Source: an uncultured Candidatus Saccharibacteria bacterium
GTDB lineage: Bacteria > Patescibacteriota > Minisyncoccia > Phycocordibacterales > UBA2100
Length of the DNA stretch: 64,000 bases
Reading direction: 5' to 3'
Assembly: GCA_964399345.1 (NCBI GenBank)
Contig: CAYNQE010000001.1
Span: 17,060-81,059, forward strand
In this document: positions 2,294 to 41,826 of the stretch, piece after piece
How the letters are laid out: each line of letters starts with the position of its first letter
Numbering within the stretch: position 1 is the stretch's first letter
Made by a program: the position numbers and the translations under genes
The notes under the pieces: model-generated
The model's input: only the letters and a program-made list of their open reading frames with translations
What the model was told of the DNA's origin: nothing
The model's database searches: none

Positions 2294-3238
2294 ATGACTG
2301 AAAAACAACGTCTGCTAACCGGATTACAACCTTCTGGAACATTACACATTGGAAATTACTTTGGCGCTCTTAAGCCCTTTGTAGATATGTACGAAAACTA
2401 TGACAGTCACCTAATGGTTGTTGATTACCACGCCCTTACAACTATTCGAAACCCTGAAGAACTGCGTTCTAATACCATAAATATTGTTAAGGACTACGTT
2501 GCAGCAGGAGTTGATCCTGAGAAAGTAATATTGTTTAGACAATCAGACGTACAAGAGCACACCGAGCTATCTTGGATTTTCCAATGCCTGGTGAGTGTTC
2601 CATTTTTAATGCAGTCACACTCCTACAAGGACAAAGTTGCCAAAGGACTTGAGGCAAACGCCGGTTTGTTTAGTTATCCAATGCTTATGGCAGCGGACAT
2701 TCTTCTCTACGATACAAAAGTTGTTCCAGTGGGGGAGGATCAACGACAACACATTGAATATGCAAGAGAGGCCGCAAATAAGTTCAATAATGCATTCGGA
2801 GAAACATTCACCCCACCCCAGGAAAATATTATTGAAGGAGTTGGAACTGTTCCAGGAGTTGATGGTAAAAAGATGAGTAAAAGCTATAACAACACCATTC
2901 CACTTTTCGGCAGCAAGGAAGAAATAGAAAGTGCTGTTATGAGTATCGTTACAGATTCTGATGGGGAAGTTCCTGAAAATGTATACGCCATACACAAATT
3001 ACTTAGAAGCGAGGAAGATCTTAAGGTTATCTACGAAGAAAATAAAGGACAGTACGGAGAACTTAAAAAGATTTTAATTGAAGATTTAGAAAACTTAATC
3101 GCCCCAATGAGAGAAAGACGAGAACAAATTACTGACGAAGACGTAAGGGCTATACTCGAAAGTGGTGCGCAAAAAGCAAGAGAAAGGGCTCAGGAAAAAA
3201 TGATTGATGTTAAAAAGAAAATCGGAGTAACACTATAA
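2294..3238 (+). CDS. trpS: Tryptophan--tRNA ligase
   Basis: Class I HIGH-type motif TLHIGNYFGA, the KMSKS motif (KKMSKS), and about 314 aa, typical of TrpRS. Confidence 0.85.
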   Translation: MTEKQRLLTGLQPSGTLHIGNYFGALKPFVDMYENYDSHLMVVDYHALTTIRNPEELRSNTINIVKDYVAAGVDPEKVILFRQSDVQEHTELSWIFQCLVSVPFLMQSHSYKDKVAKGLEANAGLFSYPMLMAADILLYDTKVVPVGEDQRQHIEYAREAANKFNNAFGETFTPPQENIIEGVGTVPGVDGKKMSKSYNNTIPLFGSKEEIESAVMSIVTDSDGEVPENVYAIHKLLRSEEDLKVIYEENKGQYGELKKILIEDLENLIAPMRERREQITDEDVRAILESGAQKARERAQEKMIDVKKKIGVTL

Positions 3239-3240
3239 AC

Positions 3241-4545
3241 ATGGAACGAACAATAATTTCAGACTTAACTAAAAAGAAAGGGGAGAAGGTACACATCGCA
3301 GGATGGGTAGATGTTCGTCGTGATCATGGGAAACTTACCTTCCTAGTTATCCGAGACCGTAGTGGAGTGGTTCAAGGTGTTGTCAAAGGAGATCTTACTG
3401 ACGAGACTAAAGACATACGAGAGCAATGGGTGGTAAGTATTCAAGGCACCGTAAACGAACGACCTGAGAGTATGATTAAGGACGAGCAAAACGGTGATGT
3501 TGAATTACTTGTCGAAGAAGTGCAAATTCTCTCAGAAGCTGATGAAATGCCTTTCGACTTAGATTCAGAATTAAATATAGATACATACTTAGACAACCTT
3601 CCACTAACACTACGTTCACAAAAAGCATTAGATGTATTCACAGTTCAAGCAACCATTACCGCGGCATTCCGTGAGTTCCTAACAAACGAGGGATTCAAAG
3701 AATACCAGTCACCTGCACTTGTAGGAGGAGACGCAGAAGGAGGAGCATCTGCCTTTAAAGTCGACTATTACAAAGATAAGTTAGCGTTTCTAGCAACTAG
3801 CCCTCAATTGTATAAGCAGATAATGGTAGGAACCTACGAGAGAGTGTTCAGTATTGGAAAAGTTTTTAGAGGAGAAGATCACGCAACTTCACGACACCTT
3901 TCAGAATATTCCTCCTTGGACTTTGAGATGGGCTTTATTGAAGATCACGAAGACGTTATGGAGATGACTCAAGCTGTTCACTCACATATCGCAAAGACTA
4001 TAGCTGAAAGACATCCCGACATACTTAAGAGAATGGAAGTTGAAATCCCATTAACTCCAGAAAAGTTTCCAGTAGTTACACTTAAGGAAGCACTGGAGAT
4101 TGTTGGAGCTGATGTTAACGAGCCAGATCTTGAACCTGAACACGAACGACAACTATGTGCTTGGGCTAAAGAGAATCATAAGTCTGACTATATCTTTGTT
4201 ACTCACTACCCTGTATCAAAGCGTCCTTTCTATACATACGAAGATGAAGATGCGCCAGGCACAACAAAAGGCTTTGATCTTCTTTTCCGAGGACTTGAGA
4301 TAACAACAGGAGGTCAAAGAATACACGACCATGATACTTTAGTTGAGAAGATAAAAGAGAAGGGAATGAACCCAGAACTATTCTCGTTCTATCTTCAAGC
4401 ATTTAAATTTGGAATGCCTCCTCACGGTGGTACAGGAAACGGACTAGAGCGTCTAACTCAACTTATGCTTGGACTAAAGAATGTGCGAGAAGCTACTTTA
4501 TTCCCACGTGACATGAACCGAATAGATAATCAGTTGAGTGAATAG
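3241..4545 (+). CDS. aspS: Aspartate--tRNA ligase, archaeal/type-2 form (class IIb)
   Basis: Class II motifs FRGEDHATSRHLSEY and GGQRIHD. C-terminal IKEKGMNPELFSFYLQAFKFGMPPHGGTGNGLERL closely matches archaeal-type AspRS. Length 434 aa. Confidence 0.75.
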   Translation: MERTIISDLTKKKGEKVHIAGWVDVRRDHGKLTFLVIRDRSGVVQGVVKGDLTDETKDIREQWVVSIQGTVNERPESMIKDEQNGDVELLVEEVQILSEADEMPFDLDSELNIDTYLDNLPLTLRSQKALDVFTVQATITAAFREFLTNEGFKEYQSPALVGGDAEGGASAFKVDYYKDKLAFLATSPQLYKQIMVGTYERVFSIGKVFRGEDHATSRHLSEYSSLDFEMGFIEDHEDVMEMTQAVHSHIAKTIAERHPDILKRMEVEIPLTPEKFPVVTLKEALEIVGADVNEPDLEPEHERQLCAWAKENHKSDYIFVTHYPVSKRPFYTYEDEDAPGTTKGFDLLFRGLEITTGGQRIHDHDTLVEKIKEKGMNPELFSFYLQAFKFGMPPHGGTGNGLERLTQLMLGLKNVREATLFPRDMNRIDNQLSE

Positions 4546-29577: not shown

Positions 29578-29584
29578 TGACCGG

Positions 29585-29655
29585 CGGGCCCACCAGGACT
29601 CGAACCTGGAACGTTGGTTTTGGAAACCAAAATTTTGCCTTTAAACTATAGGCCC
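29585..29655 (-). tRNA. tRNA-Trp (anticodon CCA)
   Basis: Manual fold gives a 71-nt cloverleaf. Acceptor GGGCCTA pairs with TGGGCCC. Anticodon stem TTGGT/ACCAA with loop TTCCAAA. T-arm CCAGG-TTCGAGT-CCTGG. Confidence 0.8.
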
Positions 29656-30093
29656 GTATTTATTCATTGTCTCGCGGGCAATTGCCTGCACCTCACGAGC
29701 TACAATAACATCATAATACCTTATTGAAACACATCCTTGATAATTGTCCCTAGTGCGTGGCCCATGATTCGACTTTATAAATGGCTTTATGAATCTAGAC
29801 ACTGGTATATTAGTTATTTTTGCCCAAAAACGCAATTGTTTTTTAATGTCATGATATGCATGTAGCTGAACAGAGACTCGCAACTTAGTTTCGTCTATCT
29901 CAAAATTGTCCCTTAGTAGCTTTAAAAATAAGGAAACCAACTTGGGATCAGGATTAACAAATTGCAACTCCCCGTCACTAAGTGACTTCGAACCCTCACA
30001 CCAATGAAGCATTGCACATAGAACTTTCCCATACGAATTAGACATTGTTACAGAATTTAATACCAGGTACGCTTTTTCCTTTGCATCCTGCAA
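29641..30093 (-). CDS. LAGLIDADG-type endonuclease domain ('LHWCEG' variant). It looks like the C-terminal part of a disrupted HTH-endonuclease gene, paralogous to 31090-31698.
   Basis: AMLHWCEGSK and C-terminal IRYYD align with MLYWAEGYD and IRYHD of the 202-aa paralog. The motif resembles the I-DmoI second LAGLIDADG helix (GLYVAEGD). The 3' end overlaps tRNA-Trp by 15 nt. Confidence 0.5.
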   Translation of the reverse strand: MQDAKEKAYLVLNSVTMSNSYGKVLCAMLHWCEGSKSLSDGELQFVNPDPKLVSLFLKLLRDNFEIDETKLRVSVQLHAYHDIKKQLRFWAKITNIPVSRFIKPFIKSNHGPRTRDNYQGCVSIRYYDVIVAREVQAIARETMNKYGPIV

Positions 30094-30164
30094 TCTTTTA
30101 CTTGTTCTTTGTCGAAGTATTCTCTGCGAAGAAAGCTGCCCGAGCGTGTATAAACTTTTTAACC

Positions 30165-30308
30165 TTAACTTGCTTTCTTATTTAATACAATGTTATTGCA
30201 CCACAGAGAGGCAGTGCCTTTAGAAACGCTCAATAGTTCACTTATCTCCTTTAGAGAATAGCCTTTTCTTCTTAAGATAAGTGCTTGTTGTTTTTCCTTG
30301 AATTTCAT
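30165..30308 (-). pseudogene. Detached 47-aa HTH fragment. It corresponds to the N-terminal HTH of the intact paralog and is separated from the nuclease domain by two stop codons and a frameshift.
   Basis: MKFKEKQQALILRRKGYSLKEISELLSVSKGTASLW parallels LYSKQGYSMQKIATRFAVSIDAV in the 202-aa paralog. TAA and then TAA stops precede the downstream ATG. Confidence 0.4.
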
Positions 30309-30390
30309 ATCGAACCCCTATCTGGAGTTATATTATACCATATTTAGGATATTCCTAGAAAAGAAAAAGAGTCGCTTTTGCGACTCTTTT

Positions 30391-30552
30391 TCTACTTCTT
30401 CACTTCCTTGTGAGTCTTCTGAGCCCGGCACCACTTACAAAACTTCTTTAGCTCAAGTTTGTCGAGGTTTTCTCCTTTTATTCTACGTGTAGTCCAGTAA
30501 TTCGTACGCTTACAATCTGAACACGCTAATTTTTTTAATTTGTCTTGACTCA
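30391..30552 (-). CDS. rpmG: 50S ribosomal protein L33 (53 aa; not in the ORF track)
   Basis: Translation MSQDKLKKLACSDCKRTNYWTTRRIKGENLDKLELKKFCKWCRAQKTHKEVKK has the L33 CxxC...CxxC zinc ribbon and its consensus. Confidence 0.8.
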
Positions 30553-30567
30553 TATGTAGCGCATAGA

Positions 30568-30948
30568 TTAAACAATTGAGCGCACTATGTCAACAGATAC
30601 TCCTCTTTCACTAAAGCCCTCCCCTGTTAAAGTCTTTAATAGCGTATCAATTAAGAGCCAGGCAACGAGAAGAATGATCAACCCGATAACAACGGAGCCA
30701 AATATCCCCTTTCCTTTAGCTATTTTGTCTGTACTTCCGCCACCTGAAAAGAAAAGCCAACCAGCGTAGGCAAACATCACAGCGGAGATTATAATCCCTA
30801 GTCCTATCATGAAAGTAAGTAGGTTCTGCCCTATTTTTATTAAATCATCAAAACCACAGTTATCTGTACATGGAACTAGCTGCGCCAAAACTATTGTGGG
30901 TAAAATTAATACTACTCCTAAACTTAGAAATATAAGGTGCTTTTGCAT
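30568..30948 (-). CDS. Small secreted two-TM protein, T4SS-pilin-like (TrbC/VirB2-like). Orphan paralog of the 43.8-45.5 kb array.
   Basis: Signal peptide followed by two hydrophobic helices. Similar architecture to the five tandem genes downstream of the DGR. Confidence 0.4.
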   Translation of the reverse strand: MQKHLIFLSLGVVLILPTIVLAQLVPCTDNCGFDDLIKIGQNLLTFMIGLGIIISAVMFAYAGWLFFSGGGSTDKIAKGKGIFGSVVIGLIILLVAWLLIDTLLKTLTGEGFSERGVSVDIVRSIV

Positions 30949-31000
30949 GGTTTAATAGTAACACCTATCCTTGATTAAAGATGGGCATTGTGTGTATTTG

Positions 31001-31084
31001 TGCGCCGAGCAGGATTTGAACCTGCGTAGACATAATGTCGTTGGATTTACAGTCCAATGCCTTTGACCACTCAGCCATCGACGC
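31001..31084 (-). tRNA. tRNA-Tyr (anticodon GTA)
   Basis: 84-nt cloverleaf. Acceptor GCGTCGA/TCGGCGC. Anticodon loop CTGTAAA. Long variable arm. T-arm CAGG-TTCAAAT-CCTG. Confidence 0.8.
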
Positions 31085-31089
31085 ATAAT

Positions 31090-31698
31090 CTAAGTACAAT
31101 ACTTAGACTTGTAGGATTCTATCAGATTACGCACATCGAGCAACATTTTTTTGTCGTGATACCGTATATGTACCAACCCAAACTTCATTACCCTACCATC
31201 TTTTCTATAATCCTCTCTAACGTAAGGTTTAACAAATTGATCCAGTGGTACATTTAAGCACTTACTCCAAAATTTCTTTATTAACTCTACGTCTTGATTT
31301 GAATAACAGTAGATTACTGGCCTAAACTTGGCTTCTTCTAAAATGTACCTACTTCGTAGAAAGGAGATAAACAGTTTAGCCATCGCCGGATCACTGTTTG
31401 CAAAATCAATACCTGTTGCCTTTTCGGTATCATACCCTTCGGCCCAGTACAGCATAGCCCCCATTGATTGCAGATTTCTATTTACTCCTTTCCTAAGTTT
31501 GAATGAAGGTCTTTTCTGATCAAAAGTCACTTTGCGAGCCTCCTTTAAGCTACGTCTTGGTACTTTATGTTTCCTCATAAAATAAACTACAGCATCTATT
31601 GATACAGCAAATCGTGTGGCAATCTTTTGCATAGAATACCCTTGTTTAGAATACAAACGTTTAACTAATTCTAGATCTCTTTTATGTATAGCAGACAC
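31090..31698 (-). CDS. HTH-LAGLIDADG ('LYWAEG' variant) homing-endonuclease-like protein, intact copy
   Basis: N-terminal HTH (YSMQKIATRFAVSIDAV). The core SMGAMLYWAEGYDTEK resembles an LAGLIDADG helix. Ends 6 nt from tRNA-Tyr. Confidence 0.55.
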   Translation of the reverse strand: MSAIHKRDLELVKRLYSKQGYSMQKIATRFAVSIDAVVYFMRKHKVPRRSLKEARKVTFDQKRPSFKLRKGVNRNLQSMGAMLYWAEGYDTEKATGIDFANSDPAMAKLFISFLRSRYILEEAKFRPVIYCYSNQDVELIKKFWSKCLNVPLDQFVKPYVREDYRKDGRVMKFGLVHIRYHDKKMLLDVRNLIESYKSKYCT

Positions 31699-31770
31699 CT
31701 AAATATAGTAGCAATTCTACTATTAAGAACAAGAACAACTATACACAGACCTTATTGACTTGATACATAA

Positions 31771-34443
31771 CTACGCTGCCACTGCTCTCCTAACCCTCTT
31801 CTTCCTTACACTTTTTTTAGTTGAATCAAATTTGAAGTTTCCGTCTTTAACGCTCACTTTTACAGAGCCTCCCTCCACCATCCCCTCTCGCACCATCATG
31901 TTAGCAATAGGTGTAAGAATATTATTTTGAATAAGTCTTTTTAGTGGTCTTGCGCCGTATTGTGGGTTGTATCCTTCTTTTGCAATATGATTTATAGCGG
32001 TAGTAGAAAGACTTAGCTTAATGTTTTTCTGAAGCAGTCTCTTCTGTACTATCTCTACCTGCATATTTACAATTTTCTTAATCGCTTTTTCTGAAAGTAT
32101 GTCAAAGAGAATTATTTCATCTAATCGGTTTAAAAATTCCGGACGGAAGAAATCTCTTAGGGATTTCATTACCTTGTCTTTGCTGTGGTCGTATTGTGCA
32201 TTTTCCCCTTGATCGTCGGTGAATCCTAATCTGCTCATCTTATCTATATGCTCTGAACCTAAGTTACTTGTCATTATTACAATAGTGTTTTTGAAGTTTA
32301 CAATTCTTCCTTTAGAATCAGTTAACCTTCCGTTATCTAGAACTTGAAGTAATACATTTAAAGCCTCAGGGTGTGCCTTTTCTATTTCATCAAACAGAAC
32401 TACAGAGTATGGGCGATGCCTTATTTTCTCTGTTAAAGATCCCCCGTCATCGTGCCCAACATACCCAGGAGGAGATCCAATCATCTTTGAAACTGAATGT
32501 CTTTCCATAAACTCAGACATATCTACTCGTATCATTGCGTTTTCATCATCGAATATAAACTCGGCGAGAGCCTTGGTTAGCTCCGTCTTTCCAACTCCTG
32601 TTGGCCCTAATAGCAAAAAGGACCCTATCGGTCGCTCAGGATCTGCTATACCAACTCGTGAGCGTTTTACGGCGTTTGAGACCTTAAGAAGCGCGTCGTC
32701 CTGCCCTACTATACGAGCTTTAAGAACCTCTTCCATTCTAGAGAGTTTCTCAATTTCATCTTCAAGCATCCTCTTAACAGGAACGCCCGTCCAACGACTA
32801 ACAACGTCTGCAATATCTTCTTCTGTAATTTCTTCTTTTAAAATTCTACGAGAACTTTGTAGTTTCTTTAGTCTAAGAGATTTTGTTTTAAGCTCCTTCT
32901 CTAGTTCAGGAATTTGTCCGTACCTTATTTCAGCAGCACTTGAGAGATCGGCAATTGACTCAGCAGCCTCGGCCACAAGTCTCATTTCTTCTAATTCTTT
33001 TTTGGTTTCCTTAATGCTGTCTAAGGTTTCCTTTTCATTTTTCCATTTAACTTCCAACTCTCTCGTTCCTTCTTTTAGCTCTGCTATTTCTTTCTCAACA
33101 GTTTTTGCCCTTACTCTAGCCCCTTTCTCCCCTTCCTTAATATCTTTTTTTAGAGCTTCGAGCTCAATTTCAAAACGCATGATCTTTCTGTGAGCTTCCT
33201 CTAGCTTAGGAGGCTTGTTCTCAAGAGAAATACGCAGTGCAGAGGAGGCCTCATCTATTAGATCAACCGCCTTGTCTGGTAGGTGTCTCTCTGTTAAATA
33301 TCTACTGCTTAATTCAACTGAAGACACTATTGCCTCATCAGTTATTCTAACTCCGTGATAAAGCTCGTACTTTTCTTTTAATCCTCGCATAATTGCAATA
33401 GCGTCTTCAAGCGATGGCTCATTTACATGAACCGGCTGAAAGCGTCTCGTTAGTGCCGGATCTCTTTCAATGTGTTTTTGATATTCATTTAAAGTCGTGG
33501 CGCCAATCACCCTCATGTCCCCTCTTGCAAGTACTGGTTTAAGCATGTTCGATGCATCCATTGAACCCTCGGCTGAACCTGTTCCAACAATTGTATGAAT
33601 TTCGTCGATAAACAATATTATCTGTCCTTCTGAGCGTTCTATTTCTTTCATTATTGCCTTAAGGCGCTCTTCAAACTCCCCTCTAAATTTAGTTCCTGCA
33701 ATTAAAAGCCCGAGATCTAGAGAAACTAGGTTTTTGTCCTTAAGAGACTCGGGCACATCGCCACTCGCCATCCTTTGTGCAAGACCTTCGGAGATTGCAG
33801 TTTTCCCAACTCCGGCCTCCCCGATTAATATTGGGTTATTCTTTGTTCTACGAGAAAGTATTTGAATTACTCTTGTTATCTCAGTATCTCTTCCTATAAC
33901 TGGATCCAGCTTGTTTTCTCTTGCCTGCTCCGTAAGACTTTGCGTAAATTTAGCAATAGCACGATTTTGTTTTGGAGATTCGATGTCAGTAATTTTTCCA
34001 TCCTTTATATCTTCATAAACCCCAACAACCTCTTCCTTGTCCACTCTAAAACGCGCCAAGATCTCTGCAGAATTTCCTGGGTTGTCCAATATCGAAAGAA
34101 GTAAATGTTCTGTGGAGACAAATTGATCTCCAAATATATCGGCTGTCTTTGGTGCTCCTTCTTGTAGGATTTGTGCTAACTCAGGAGTTAAATATAACTG
34201 GTACGAAGTGGACATACTGGCACTTGCCGTAGTTCCATCTAGTGCTTCAATCAAAGAATCCGAAAAGTGCAGTGTGTCAATCTCTAGTCGATCAAGTATT
34301 GAAAGTGTCATACTCTCATCCTGTAGAAGAAGAGATGCTAATAGATGCAGCGGACTAACATGAGACTGCCCTCTTTCTATCGCTAACTGATGCGCTTTAT
34401 GAACAGCCTCCTTGGCTTTAGTTGTAAAATTGTTAAAAGGCAT
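31771..34443 (-). CDS. clpB: ATP-dependent chaperone ClpB
   Basis: Clp N-domain, two AAA+ modules ([10 protein letters not shown] and [10 protein letters not shown]) and a long coiled-coil middle domain. 890 aa. Confidence 0.9.
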
Positions 34444-39935: not shown

Positions 39936-40571
39936 ATGGCTAAGGCACACAAGAAGATTAACATGGCCTGGTCTCCAAAATTATCTTACGCAATAGGAAT
40001 AATAGCCTCTGATGGTAATTTGTCCCCTGATAGAAGGCATATAAACATAACATCAAAAGATCTCTCTATTGTTGAAAGTTGTAAAAGCGCACTAGAGATA
40101 GATAACAAAATAGGAAGGAAGAGCCGCGAACGTTCTTCCGAAAAGGAATATTATGTCCTTCAATTTGGAAGTGTATTGTTTTATCAATTCTTGCTTGACC
40201 TGGGACTTCACCCAAACAAATCAAAAACACTGAAAAAAGTAGACGTTCCTAATGAATATTTCTCACATTTTTTACGAGGACTTATGAATGGTGATGGAAC
40301 AATAACATCCTTTAAGCATCCTTATAGCAAACTACTTCAAACAAGAATATCTTTGGCATCTGCAAGTCCGGATTTTCTAATCTGGATACACGGTAAAATA
40401 CGAAAACTTGTAAATATTGAAGGTGGTTGGATATACAATGCAAAAAAGAAAAATATCTCCATGCTTACATTTGGCAAAAGAGACACTATACTAGTCTGCA
40501 AATTTATGTATAATAAATCGGCTACATACAAGCTTATGCGTAAATATGATTGCATAGAAAAGTATCTTTAA
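39936..40571 (+). CDS. Double-motif (monomeric) LAGLIDADG homing endonuclease
   Basis: Two LAGLIDADG helices, YAIGIIASDGNL and HFLRGLMNGDGTI, about 100 aa apart. 211 aa. It fills the tRNA-Lys/tRNA-Leu spacer exactly. Confidence 0.8.
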   Translation: MAKAHKKINMAWSPKLSYAIGIIASDGNLSPDRRHINITSKDLSIVESCKSALEIDNKIGRKSRERSSEKEYYVLQFGSVLFYQFLLDLGLHPNKSKTLKKVDVPNEYFSHFLRGLMNGDGTITSFKHPYSKLLQTRISLASASPDFLIWIHGKIRKLVNIEGGWIYNAKKKNISMLTFGKRDTILVCKFMYNKSATYKLMRKYDCIEKYL

Positions 40572-40574
40572 GTT

Positions 40575-40659
40575 GGGCGAGTGGTGAAATTGGTATACAC
40601 GCGTGGTTTAGGACCACGTTCCGCAAGGAGTGGAGGTTCAAGTCCTCTCTCGCCCACCA
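40575..40659 (+). tRNA. tRNA-Leu (anticodon TAG), CCA encoded
   Basis: Acceptor GGGCGAG/CTCGCCC. Anticodon stem CGTGG/CCACG with loop TTTAGGA. Long variable arm. Ends ACCA. Confidence 0.8.
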
Positions 40660-40667
40660 GAATAGAA

Positions 40668-40812
40668 CTTGTCCGCCTACGCACTGGACGTGTCGCCTCG
40701 TTCCACTCAGCAACCTAAATACAAACTCATTCCCTTTCAACTTTTTACGACTCCCCCAGACCCCCACCGCAGGGAAAAGGAAAGGTGAGGAAATGGTTTG
40801 TTTTTTGGTTTA
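40668..40812 (+). repeat. Repeat A: about 145 bp left-flank copy of an inverted repeat pair bracketing the DGR. Begins 9 nt after tRNA-Leu(UAG).
   Basis: The reverse complement of 43553-43690 aligns base-for-base with this segment at about 80% identity, for example cgcctacgca[c/t]tggac...gttccactc...acccccaccgc[a/g]ggg...ggaaatg. Confidence 0.7.
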
Positions 40813-40827
40813 CTACTACGTAGTTAA

Positions 40828-41826
40828 CTACTTATTTAAATGTGTAGAAAGGGAGCGCGTGTACTCTTTTAACTCATAAGCATCTCCATGTCCGAGTAGT
40901 CCCAAGTATGATTGTAAAGTCCATTGTTTGCCATCAACTTCACTAATTCTCTTTAACATTCTTCGTTTTGTTACACTGCGTAGTACACGGTGAGTCGGAA
41001 AGTGAACCCAACCTAGAAAGTCAACTCCTGAGGAGAATGTTTCAATGGAAGTCTTTCGTTTATGCAATTTAAGTTGTAACTCTTCTTTTAGAAACGCACC
41101 TATGCACCGATGTATTTCCAACAACTCTTGTCTGTCTCGCGAAAGAATCACAAAATCGTCAGCATAACGAATATAATATTTAGCTTTCAGTTTGTGTTTA
41201 ACAAACTTATCAAGCTCATTCATATATACATTAACAAAGAGTTGCGAAGTGAGGTTACCAAGTGGTAATCCTTTTCTTTTCTCACCAGAGCTGAAACTCC
41301 CAACAATCTCTTCTAAAAGCGAAATTATATCTTTGTCAGAAATGTGTTTCTTCAAAATATTCATTAAGATAGAGTGGCCAATGGAGGCAAAGAATTTTCG
41401 TATATCGCTTTTAAATACCCAAACTGTTTTCGTGTTGTTCTTTGAAACTTTGTTTACAAAACTGCGAAGCCGATCAATTGCTCTGTGTGTCCCTTTGTTG
41501 TTTCTGCAAGAATATGAGTCAGCGATGAACGTATTGTCAAAATATGGATAGAGTTGTCTATATATTGCATGGTGAAATAGTCTGTCTCGCACGCTTGCCT
41601 TATGAATATTTCTTGGTTTGGGATCGGAAATGTTAAAAGCTTCGTATCTACCGTGCTTGTATGTTTTGTTTTTTAAATCTTGGTGTAATGAAAGTATGTT
41701 ATCCATTAGATGTAATTGGAACTCCTGCACGTCCTTACGTTTTCGTTTACCGTTTAAGAATTCCTTCCACGCACCGAGGAGATTTTCTACACAGATGATA
41801 TCATTGTAGGTATGAACAAATTTCAT
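40828..41826 (-). CDS. DGR-type reverse transcriptase
   Basis: RT motifs KHGRYEAFNISDPKPRNIHKASVRDRLFHHAI (domains 1-2) and YIRYADDFVIL (YADD catalytic box). 332 aa with no maturase or endonuclease domain. A TR/VR pair lies adjacent. Confidence 0.85.
   Translation of the reverse strand: MKFVHTYNDIICVENLLGAWKEFLNGKRKRKDVQEFQLHLMDNILSLHQDLKNKTYKHGRYEAFNISDPKPRNIHKASVRDRLFHHAIYRQLYPYFDNTFIADSYSCRNNKGTHRAIDRLRSFVNKVSKNNTKTVWVFKSDIRKFFASIGHSILMNILKKHISDKDIISLLEEIVGSFSSGEKRKGLPLGNLTSQLFVNVYMNELDKFVKHKLKAKYYIRYADDFVILSRDRQELLEIHRCIGAFLKEELQLKLHKRKTSIETFSSGVDFLGWVHFPTHRVLRSVTKRRMLKRISEVDGKQWTLQSYLGLLGHGDAYELKEYTRSLSTHLNK

Follow-up and report, generated by a model that had tools for sequence, protein, structure and literature searches.

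Free-standing nuclease genes among transfer RNA (tRNA) genes have a described precedent in phage T4, where SegB, a free-standing GIY-YIG homing endonuclease encoded in the phage tRNA gene cluster, recognises a sequence conserved in tRNA genes and, in spreading, takes the adjacent tRNA genes along (PMC2330249). LAGLIDADG endonucleases are known from insertions and introns of ribosomal RNA (rRNA) genes in Patescibacteria of the Candidate Phyla Radiation (CPR) (PMC11270868; PMC13011429), and LAGLIDADG domains also occur in WhiA, a domesticated transcription factor, which carries two of them in one monomer, has a C-terminal helix-turn-helix (HTH) and lacks an active site (PMC3240954). Here we analyse two related genes in a 64,000-nt stretch of an uncultured Candidatus Saccharibacteria genome (contig CAYNQE010000001.1, positions 17,060 to 81,059; hereafter the window). 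One of them, the Tyr-type gene, is intact, encodes a protein of 202 aa and lies directly 5' of tRNA-Tyr; the other, the Trp-type gene, adjoins tRNA-Trp and is frameshifted. Judging from sequence comparison and a structure model, both may be free-standing homing-endonuclease-type genes that reside in tRNA leaders, a reading to which we assign a probability of about one half.

By analogy, T4 SegB may be regarded as the nearest conceptual precedent: in both cases a free-standing nuclease-type gene sits among tRNA genes and is missing from relatives. Unlike the family to which the window genes belong, SegB is a GIY-YIG enzyme, resides in a phage and does not abut the 5' end of a specific tRNA, whereas the family has a LAGLIDADG fold, occurs in cellular genomes with no viral relatives found, and forms separate subfamilies for separate tRNAs. 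Profile searches of the window proteins (Pfam, PHROGs) gave no match to a GIY-YIG domain. The rRNA-intron endonucleases of CPR/Patescibacteria share with the family the phylum, the superfamily and the selfish-element-like occupation of stable-RNA genes, but they occupy introns or insertion sequences within rRNA genes, whereas the family lies outside the mature tRNA, in its 5' leader. Compared with LAGLIDADG homing endonucleases such as the single-motif I-CreI type and I-DmoI, the family falls below every Pfam and NCBIfam LAGLIDADG threshold and has a degenerate motif, carries a fused N-terminal HTH, and is encoded by a free-standing gene at a fixed tRNA 5' end with a leaderless promoter of its own. 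Residence in an intron or intein, which is typical but not obligatory for such enzymes, was not found: the gene is flanked by a promoter and the 5' end of the tRNA, and the group I introns present in some adjacent tRNA-Tyr genes are separate from it. WhiA differs in that it is not linked to tRNAs, whereas members of the family combine one LAGLIDADG domain with an N-terminal HTH, retain the Glu and are sporadically distributed. With respect to transcription, the closest parallel is the thrU-tyrU-glyT-thrT-tufB unit of Escherichia coli, in which tRNAs and a protein message share one transcript and are separated by RNase P and RNase processing. The ancestral tRNA-Thr/Tyr and rpmG/tRNA-Trp neighbourhood is the same in both, but the tufB message lies 3' of the tRNAs and has a housekeeping product, whereas here a dispensable open reading frame (ORF) lies 5' of the tRNA and overlaps it.

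The window pair is a local instance of a large, stereotyped and undescribed family of Patescibacteria. Homologs of the 202-aa protein number at least 170, are ~205 aa long and 44-63% identical, and all are unnamed or named for their HTH only. Of the clusters formed at 50% identity, a combined profile retrieved 4,130 with a cut-off of E ≤ 1e-10 and 655 with the stricter cut-off of 1e-30, and a scan of species-representative genomes found 222 relatives, nearly all in Patescibacteria metagenome-assembled genomes (MAGs). Our literature search found no description of the family, and a recent survey of tRNA introns in Patescibacteria makes no mention of it (PMC13011429).

Genomic context was read in a locus set comprising 80 fetched loci/genomes and the window, which together hold 91 family members. 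Three kinds of tRNA are served (Tyr-GTA, Trp-CCA and Thr-TGT/GGT), one per subfamily, and no member was found 5' of any of 14 other tRNAs in the locus set. Among the Tyr-type copies, 76 of 81 lie directly 5' of a detected tRNA-Tyr(GTA) on the same strand; three of the remaining five precede an intron-containing tRNA-Tyr missed by ARAGORN (group I intron, Rfam RF00028, 70 and 68 bits in two of the three), and the other two are located at contig ends. Measured from the 5' end of tRNA-Tyr, the protein profile ends at a median of -2 nt (range -9 to +68), and the stop codon is often within the tRNA. Trp-type copies are paralogs of 24-29% identity, and all eight with readable downstream sequence are located directly 5' of tRNA-Trp(CCA). 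The Thr subfamily is as large as the Tyr one: five out of seven Thr-type copies abut tRNA-Thr, including the two divergent copies of the locus set; of four further members inspected, three overlap tRNA-Thr(TGT) by 10 nt.

The two window loci are true paralogs with the same two modules, since the cores of the 202-aa and 150-aa ORFs are 30% identical over 122 aa (BLASTP, E 1e-23) and the separate 47-aa ORF is an HTH_23 module. The initial annotation had recognised this relationship, gave correct coordinates for all three ORFs (Table 1) and saw that one locus adjoins tRNA-Tyr while the other overlaps tRNA-Trp by 15 nt. It went on to propose a duplication followed by pseudogenisation in this genome, and here the wider comparison leads elsewhere. 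In other genomes, orthologs located at the respective tRNA share 40-63% identity with the window copies, and both types occur at the same two tRNAs in loci L012, L013, L061, L064, L069 and L070. With copies only 30% identical to each other, and each with same-tRNA orthologs elsewhere, the duplication long predates this genome. The window genes thus belong to two long-established subfamilies, each with a tRNA of its own, and are not a recent local duplication. What had been missed is how large the family is, and that a common rule holds throughout it: each subfamily keeps to one tRNA, and a promoter is followed by a leaderless ORF and then by the tRNA.

Several loci show further peculiarities. 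In L033 (4337-4552), L072 (4615-4819) and probably L061 (after 4615), tRNA-Tyr is split by a group I intron just after the anticodon, between GACTGTAA and GTTAAATTGCAGC, and the family gene is still directly upstream of the interrupted tRNA. In L162, the Thr-type gene (3001-3612) lies downstream of an intact tRNA-Thr(TGT) (2828-2903), and 43 nt past the gene there is a 37-nt copy (3656-3692, 92% identical) of tRNA-Thr positions 40-76; the tRNA 3' end is thus present as a direct repeat on either side of the gene. The gene order of L162 (tRNA-Lys, tRNA-Thr, gene, dnaB) recurs in L168 without the tRNA remnant, and L163 and L165 have the usual order, Thr-type gene then tRNA-Thr. The genome of L167, which has a Thr-type gene and whose tRNA-Tyr site is empty, also contains a Trp-type-like fragment (..LCALLYGCEGSK..FINSDP..) at 3294-3431, starting at the locus end.

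Many of the Tyr-type genes are preceded by near-consensus promoters. Sigma-70 promoters with 10 or more matches to the 12 consensus positions, mostly TTGACT-N17-TATAAT, were found 5' of 44/79 Tyr-type genes compared to 1/538 control windows. Sixty genes reach a score of 9/12 or more, and in 54 of them the -10 element ends 6-7 nt before the start codon, which corresponds to a leaderless-mRNA arrangement. Since the ORF end touches the tRNA, and no terminator-like site lies between the Tyr-type gene and the tRNA in the window, the unit reads promoter, leaderless ORF, tRNA. In a typical unit, the ORF thus appears to occupy the whole pre-tRNA leader, and we infer that ORF and tRNA are co-transcribed and that the tRNA is released by RNase P. 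The window Tyr-type promoter is weaker (8/12), and the consensus promoter scan of the window returned no site at 31702-31729; an alternative element, TGCTACTAT, ends 6 nt before the GTG.

A tRNA-Tyr promoter located inside the gene 3' end was considered as well. As a family-wide rule it is unsupported, synonymous-site conservation being 0.28 vs 0.29 bits; internal promoter-like matches in the gene 3' end are enriched in a subset only (29/76 vs 42/456 controls), and the window candidate TTGCTC-N16-TAGAAT fails the consensus scan. In most of the loci L001-L080, and in the window at 29641-29655, the ORF stop codon lies inside the tRNA, with distances from stop to tRNA start clustering at -38, -15 and -6. 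An RNase P cut at the tRNA 5' end would therefore leave a message without a stop codon, for which tagging by transfer-messenger RNA (tmRNA) is one possible consequence.

The N-terminal HTH is the only part of the 202-aa protein recognised by sequence profiles (Pfam, NCBIfam, PHROGs, and phmmer and hmmsearch against the PDB). In the window proteins it matches Pfam HTH_7/HTH_23 and the NCBIfam Cbp1-like family, and residues 7-58 match, with E 1.8e-7, PHROG families whose annotation is HNH (homing) endonuclease. Its profile matches in the PDB are a CRISPR-repeat-binding protein (2lvs; Cbp1, judging by the NCBIfam Cbp1 match over the same region) and YlxM. For the remainder of the protein, the initial annotation had proposed a LAGLIDADG identity based on a 'YWAEG' core signature and had held that a lack of profile matches would speak against it. 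Indeed, neither window protein matches the LAGLIDADG profiles of Pfam (LAGLIDADG_1/_2/_3) or NCBIfam at E ≤ 1, and this outcome is overturned by fold evidence only. Weak matches to Pfam LAGLIDADG_3 occur in 8 out of 49 family members (12.5-15.1 bits vs a cut-off of 22.5); in the four members inspected singly, the match starts from profile position 10 and lies exactly over the motif and the next strands.

The fold evidence comes from an AlphaFold model built from a 60-sequence alignment (pLDDT 95.6). It contains three HTH helices (6-43), a linker helix, a helix at 74-87 and then a beta/alpha/beta/beta/alpha/beta/beta/alpha domain, and shows the alpha-beta-beta-alpha-beta-beta-alpha core fold of a LAGLIDADG homing endonuclease. 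The enzymes listed under the model are PI-PfuI, I-Tsp061I, I-CeuI, I-Vdi141I, I-MsoI, I-CvuI and I-CreI; a Foldseek search of the PDB with the model gave no significant match. Consistent with the signature noted earlier, E87-G88 end the first core helix and are invariant in the 60 Tyr-type sequences as well as in a 49-sequence Tyr+Trp alignment. An acidic residue followed by Gly is thus found at the end of the motif helix, while the remaining motif is degenerate (MGAMLYWAEG); Thr-type copies have YWGEG at this position. The predicted structure supports a LAGLIDADG fold with its acidic residue retained, whereas formal profile membership is not reached. The family protein, ~205-225 aa long, comprises an N-terminal HTH and one LAGLIDADG-fold domain that keeps the acidic residue of the motif. 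A role as a component of an anti-phage defence system was rejected, as there was no PADLOC match at E ≤ 0.1.

The unit is present in some genomes and missing at the same site in related ones. In the locus set, the family gene occupies 7/34 tRNA-Trp sites and 2/31 tRNA-Thr sites, and is missing from the other 27 and 29, respectively. For tRNA-Tyr, sites that had not been chosen for the Tyr-type gene were reached via the neighbouring ClpB (L083-L086, L090) or, for L167, via the Thr-type gene. One out of these six independently sampled sites is occupied (L084), and L083, L085, L086, L090 and L167 are empty; in L083, L085, L086 and L090, clpB is directly followed by tRNA-Tyr with a spacer of 67-136 nt. 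Homology between occupied L084 and empty L085 extends to 14 nt beyond clpB and resumes 32 nt ahead of the tRNA, and the ~700 nt in between are present in one and absent in the other. Empty L085 and L086 have kept a segment with homology to the final ~11 codons of the gene, which is compatible with a remnant left by deletion or with an ORF end made of flank sequence. This stretch of ~32 nt (..AATCTGATAGACTATG..AAATAT; L085 4435-4465, L086 911-944), homologous to the final codons of the gene in L084, also reads TTGATT-N16-TAGACT, a possible tRNA promoter. Truncated copies were considered as a sign of frequent decay, and the two that were checked (P0367, P0371) turned out to be gene-calling artefacts with intact full-length frames.

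The Trp-type copy of the window is broken. Its orthologs are uninterrupted in all cases found (19 proteins and 7 loci); a look at relatives for an intact version had been proposed as a check in the initial annotation. That annotation had ascribed the split to two stop codons and a frameshift; the frameshift stands, and the stops are not needed, as both fall in the abandoned frame past the shift point. In a three-frame translation, no stop interrupts the core frame as far upstream as 30177, nor the HTH frame as far down as 30168, and a single 1-nt shift within 30168-30177, the core being in the -1 frame, restores a Trp-type protein of 223 aa. The joined product aligns in one segment (residues 1-221) with the uninterrupted genes of other genomes and is collinear with the 19 intact orthologs of 214-242 aa. 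Compared with these, the frame is broken once, and signs of further decay were looked for and not found: the core frame has no other stop in 178 codons and 15/15 subfamily-invariant residues are kept. On these alignments, the split copy appears to be a derived, frameshifted form, the gene being intact in every ortholog found. Programmed frameshifting is unlikely because the overlap (AAG AAA GCA AGT) has neither an X XXY YYZ slippery heptamer nor a long A run, though the core is in the -1 frame.

As one frameshift is the sole lesion, the Trp-linked window copy is either a very young pseudogene or the product of a sequencing or assembly error. According to the latter explanation, the split would be non-biological and the gene intact in the cell, with which the absence of any second lesion, the full set of invariant residues and the intact state of all orthologs agree. 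However, a second assembly, a Joint Genome Institute (JGI) contig with a length of 47,222 nt, shares 13,166 nt with the window at 100% identity, and the frameshift lies within this shared part. A single assembler can therefore not have introduced the break, although the reads may be common to both assemblies. Furthermore, the frameshift site (AAGAAAGCAAG) has no long homopolymer. Taken together, we consider an error somewhat unlikely.

Turning to the nature of the family, several observations argue for homing-endonuclease-type genes: the LAGLIDADG fold with its acidic residue, an HTH as on phage homing nucleases, one target gene per lineage with a precise junction, presence and absence at the same site, and one decaying copy. 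A selfish, tRNA-associated character, as already proposed in the initial annotation, fits the presence/absence data. In this scheme, the gene would enter between a tRNA promoter and the tRNA, and ORF and tRNA would be transcribed together from a strong promoter, either that of the tRNA or one brought along by the gene. The ORF would be translated as a leaderless message, and RNase P would free the tRNA from it, leaving the host tRNA unharmed; such release would make the insertion cheap for the host, as with an intron or intein. The protein would then dimerise and cut empty alleles near the promoter/tRNA junction, this cleavage being putative, and repair would copy the gene into the cut allele (homing). 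Later on, the homed gene may be lost or decay. Across Patescibacteria, the junctions of tRNA-Tyr, tRNA-Trp and tRNA-Thr would each have acquired a specialised enzyme lineage of their own. We tentatively suggest that the 5' leader of a tRNA precursor might constitute a third 'harmless' niche for homing endonucleases besides introns and inteins.

A number of observations weigh against homing. The order clpB, gene, tRNA-Tyr is kept in 47/81 loci, the divergence of the Tyr-type gene correlates with that of ClpB (r 0.54, Mantel p 0.001), and ratios of non-synonymous to synonymous substitutions (dN/dS) are 0.07-0.24. The Tyr-type gene therefore looks long-resident, which would also fit a host function. 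There are no relatives of the family on viral contigs, and a phage origin was rejected on this ground. Moreover, a strong constitutive promoter is unusual for a nuclease able to cut the DNA of its own host, and if the tRNA gene were the target, occupied alleles would be cut as well, unless the site spans the junction. Finally, genomes with empty and occupied sites are ~25% divergent in DNA, which makes insertion indistinguishable from deletion.

Other comparisons do not fit simple vertical descent. The regression of gene divergence on ClpB divergence has an intercept of 0.31, and the nearest neighbour agrees between gene and ClpB in only 12/42 loci. Between L006 and L035, ClpB is 98.7% identical while the Tyr-type protein is 63% and the core DNA 62-69% identical (L006 3935-4618), and synonymous divergence is higher in the Tyr-type gene (pS 0.63 vs 0.48). 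This suggests an allele replacement in this pair, though clpB codon bias could contribute. The combined dN/dS and dS comparison was discarded as proof of replacement since synonymous sites are saturated in all but one pair. Overall, the evidence for vertical and horizontal descent is mixed, and the discordance between host and gene is suggestive only.

The main rival is a domesticated DNA-binding factor of the host, resembling WhiA, which might for instance regulate the promoter-ORF-tRNA unit that encodes it; selection would keep it in the lineages that carry it, and it would be no active mobile nuclease. Such a factor would account for the purifying selection, the conserved clpB synteny, the partial co-divergence with ClpB and the lack of viral relatives described above, and the near-consensus promoters imply steady expression. 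Against it stands the sporadic occupancy of the tRNA-Trp, tRNA-Thr and independently sampled tRNA-Tyr sites (7/34, 2/31 and 1/6), and it would require three paralogous subfamilies, each needed for one tRNA. In addition, neither hallmark of WhiA was found in the family protein: it has one LAGLIDADG domain and an N-terminal HTH instead of two domains and a C-terminal HTH, and it retains the Glu at the catalytic position, whereas WhiA is without an active site. We therefore regard domestication as unlikely.

Some LAGLIDADG-family proteins act as RNA maturases. Accordingly, the protein could be an RNA-binding helper resembling LAGLIDADG intron maturases that binds its own precursor and aids folding or 5' processing of the downstream tRNA. 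The abutting or overlapping of ORF and tRNA in nearly all copies, by which protein and precursor tRNA would be made together, is in line with this idea. Yet, the same tRNAs work without the gene in many related genomes, the added module is a typical DNA-binding HTH and the Glu at the catalytic position is kept, so that we consider a helper function very unlikely. Least probable is a recent within-genome duplication of one tRNA-associated selfish gene with pseudogenisation of one copy, for although the copies lie 1 kb apart, have a common architecture and include a frameshifted one, their low mutual identity, their closer relatives at the same tRNAs elsewhere and the co-occurrence of both types in other loci contradict it.

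If the genes are homing endonucleases of tRNA leaders, thousands of 'hypothetical' or 'YlxM-like' genes of Patescibacteria, whose core is covered by no Pfam domain, would gain an identity. Selfish nuclease genes would then exploit the RNase P processing of tRNA leaders as they do splicing, and it would become clear why tRNA-Tyr, tRNA-Trp and tRNA-Thr often stand behind an ORF in these tiny genomes, which bears on the expression of these tRNAs. The family would also represent a pool of compact (~200 aa), naturally diversified LAGLIDADG-type enzymes with an HTH, of possible use in genome engineering. If it were domesticated instead, it would constitute a second, independent WhiA-like recruitment of the LAGLIDADG fold.

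Table 1 Features at the two tRNA loci, in window coordinates
Feature	Position	Strand	Remarks
clpB	31771-34443	-	First of the series in ORF order on the minus strand
Weak promoter-like element TTCTTA-N16-TATATT	31702-31729	-	3 nt before the Tyr-type GTG; 8/12 consensus match
Tyr-type gene, intact, 202 aa, GTG start	31090-31698	-	HTH residues ~6-43, linker helix, single LAGLIDADG-fold domain ~74-200, motif ...MLYWAE87G88
tRNA-Tyr(GTA)	31000-31084	-	Begins 5 nt past the Tyr-type stop codon (gap 31085-31089)
T4SS_pilin-like ORF	30568-30948	-	Pfam T4SS_pilin, 29 bits, cut-off 26.6
rpmG	30392-30553	-	Ribosomal_L33, E 1e-13
Candidate extended -10 element TGGTATAAT	30332-30340	-	23 nt 5' of the Trp-type ATG, then AGGGG Shine-Dalgarno-like stretch; sequence reading
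HTH module of the Trp-type gene, separate 47-aa ORF	30165-30308	-	Pfam HTH_23, E 6.5e-6, above cut-off; aligns with N-termini of intact Trp-type orthologs
Zone with both Trp-type frames open	30168-30177	-	1-nt shift parts HTH from core; three-frame translation
Linker and LAGLIDADG-fold core of the Trp-type gene	29641-30177	-	Motif ...MLHWCEG; open frame from 30177
150-aa ORF listed by the ORF tool	29641-30093	-	From TTG at 30093; stop codon within tRNA-Trp
tRNA-Trp(CCA)	29583-29655	-	Overlapped by the final 15 nt of the Trp-type ORF (29641-29655)

As had been described before, rpmG and the pilin-like gene lie between the two copies. The pilin-like ORF encodes a small membrane protein and is located between tRNA-Tyr and rpmG; a homolog was found in only 7/81 related loci. 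The record titles of many carrier MAGs read 'uncultured Candidatus Saccharibacteria', 'Gammaproteobacteria' or 'Bdellovibrionales' (L003, L005, L006 and others; L044, L053, L072, L073, L076), and these labels look unreliable. Elsewhere in the window, ARAGORN called a 597-nt permuted 'tmRNA*' with an odd tag peptide at 40567-41163 on the plus strand. This call, which overlaps the tRNA-Leu(TAG) gene located at 40575-40659, is probably false.

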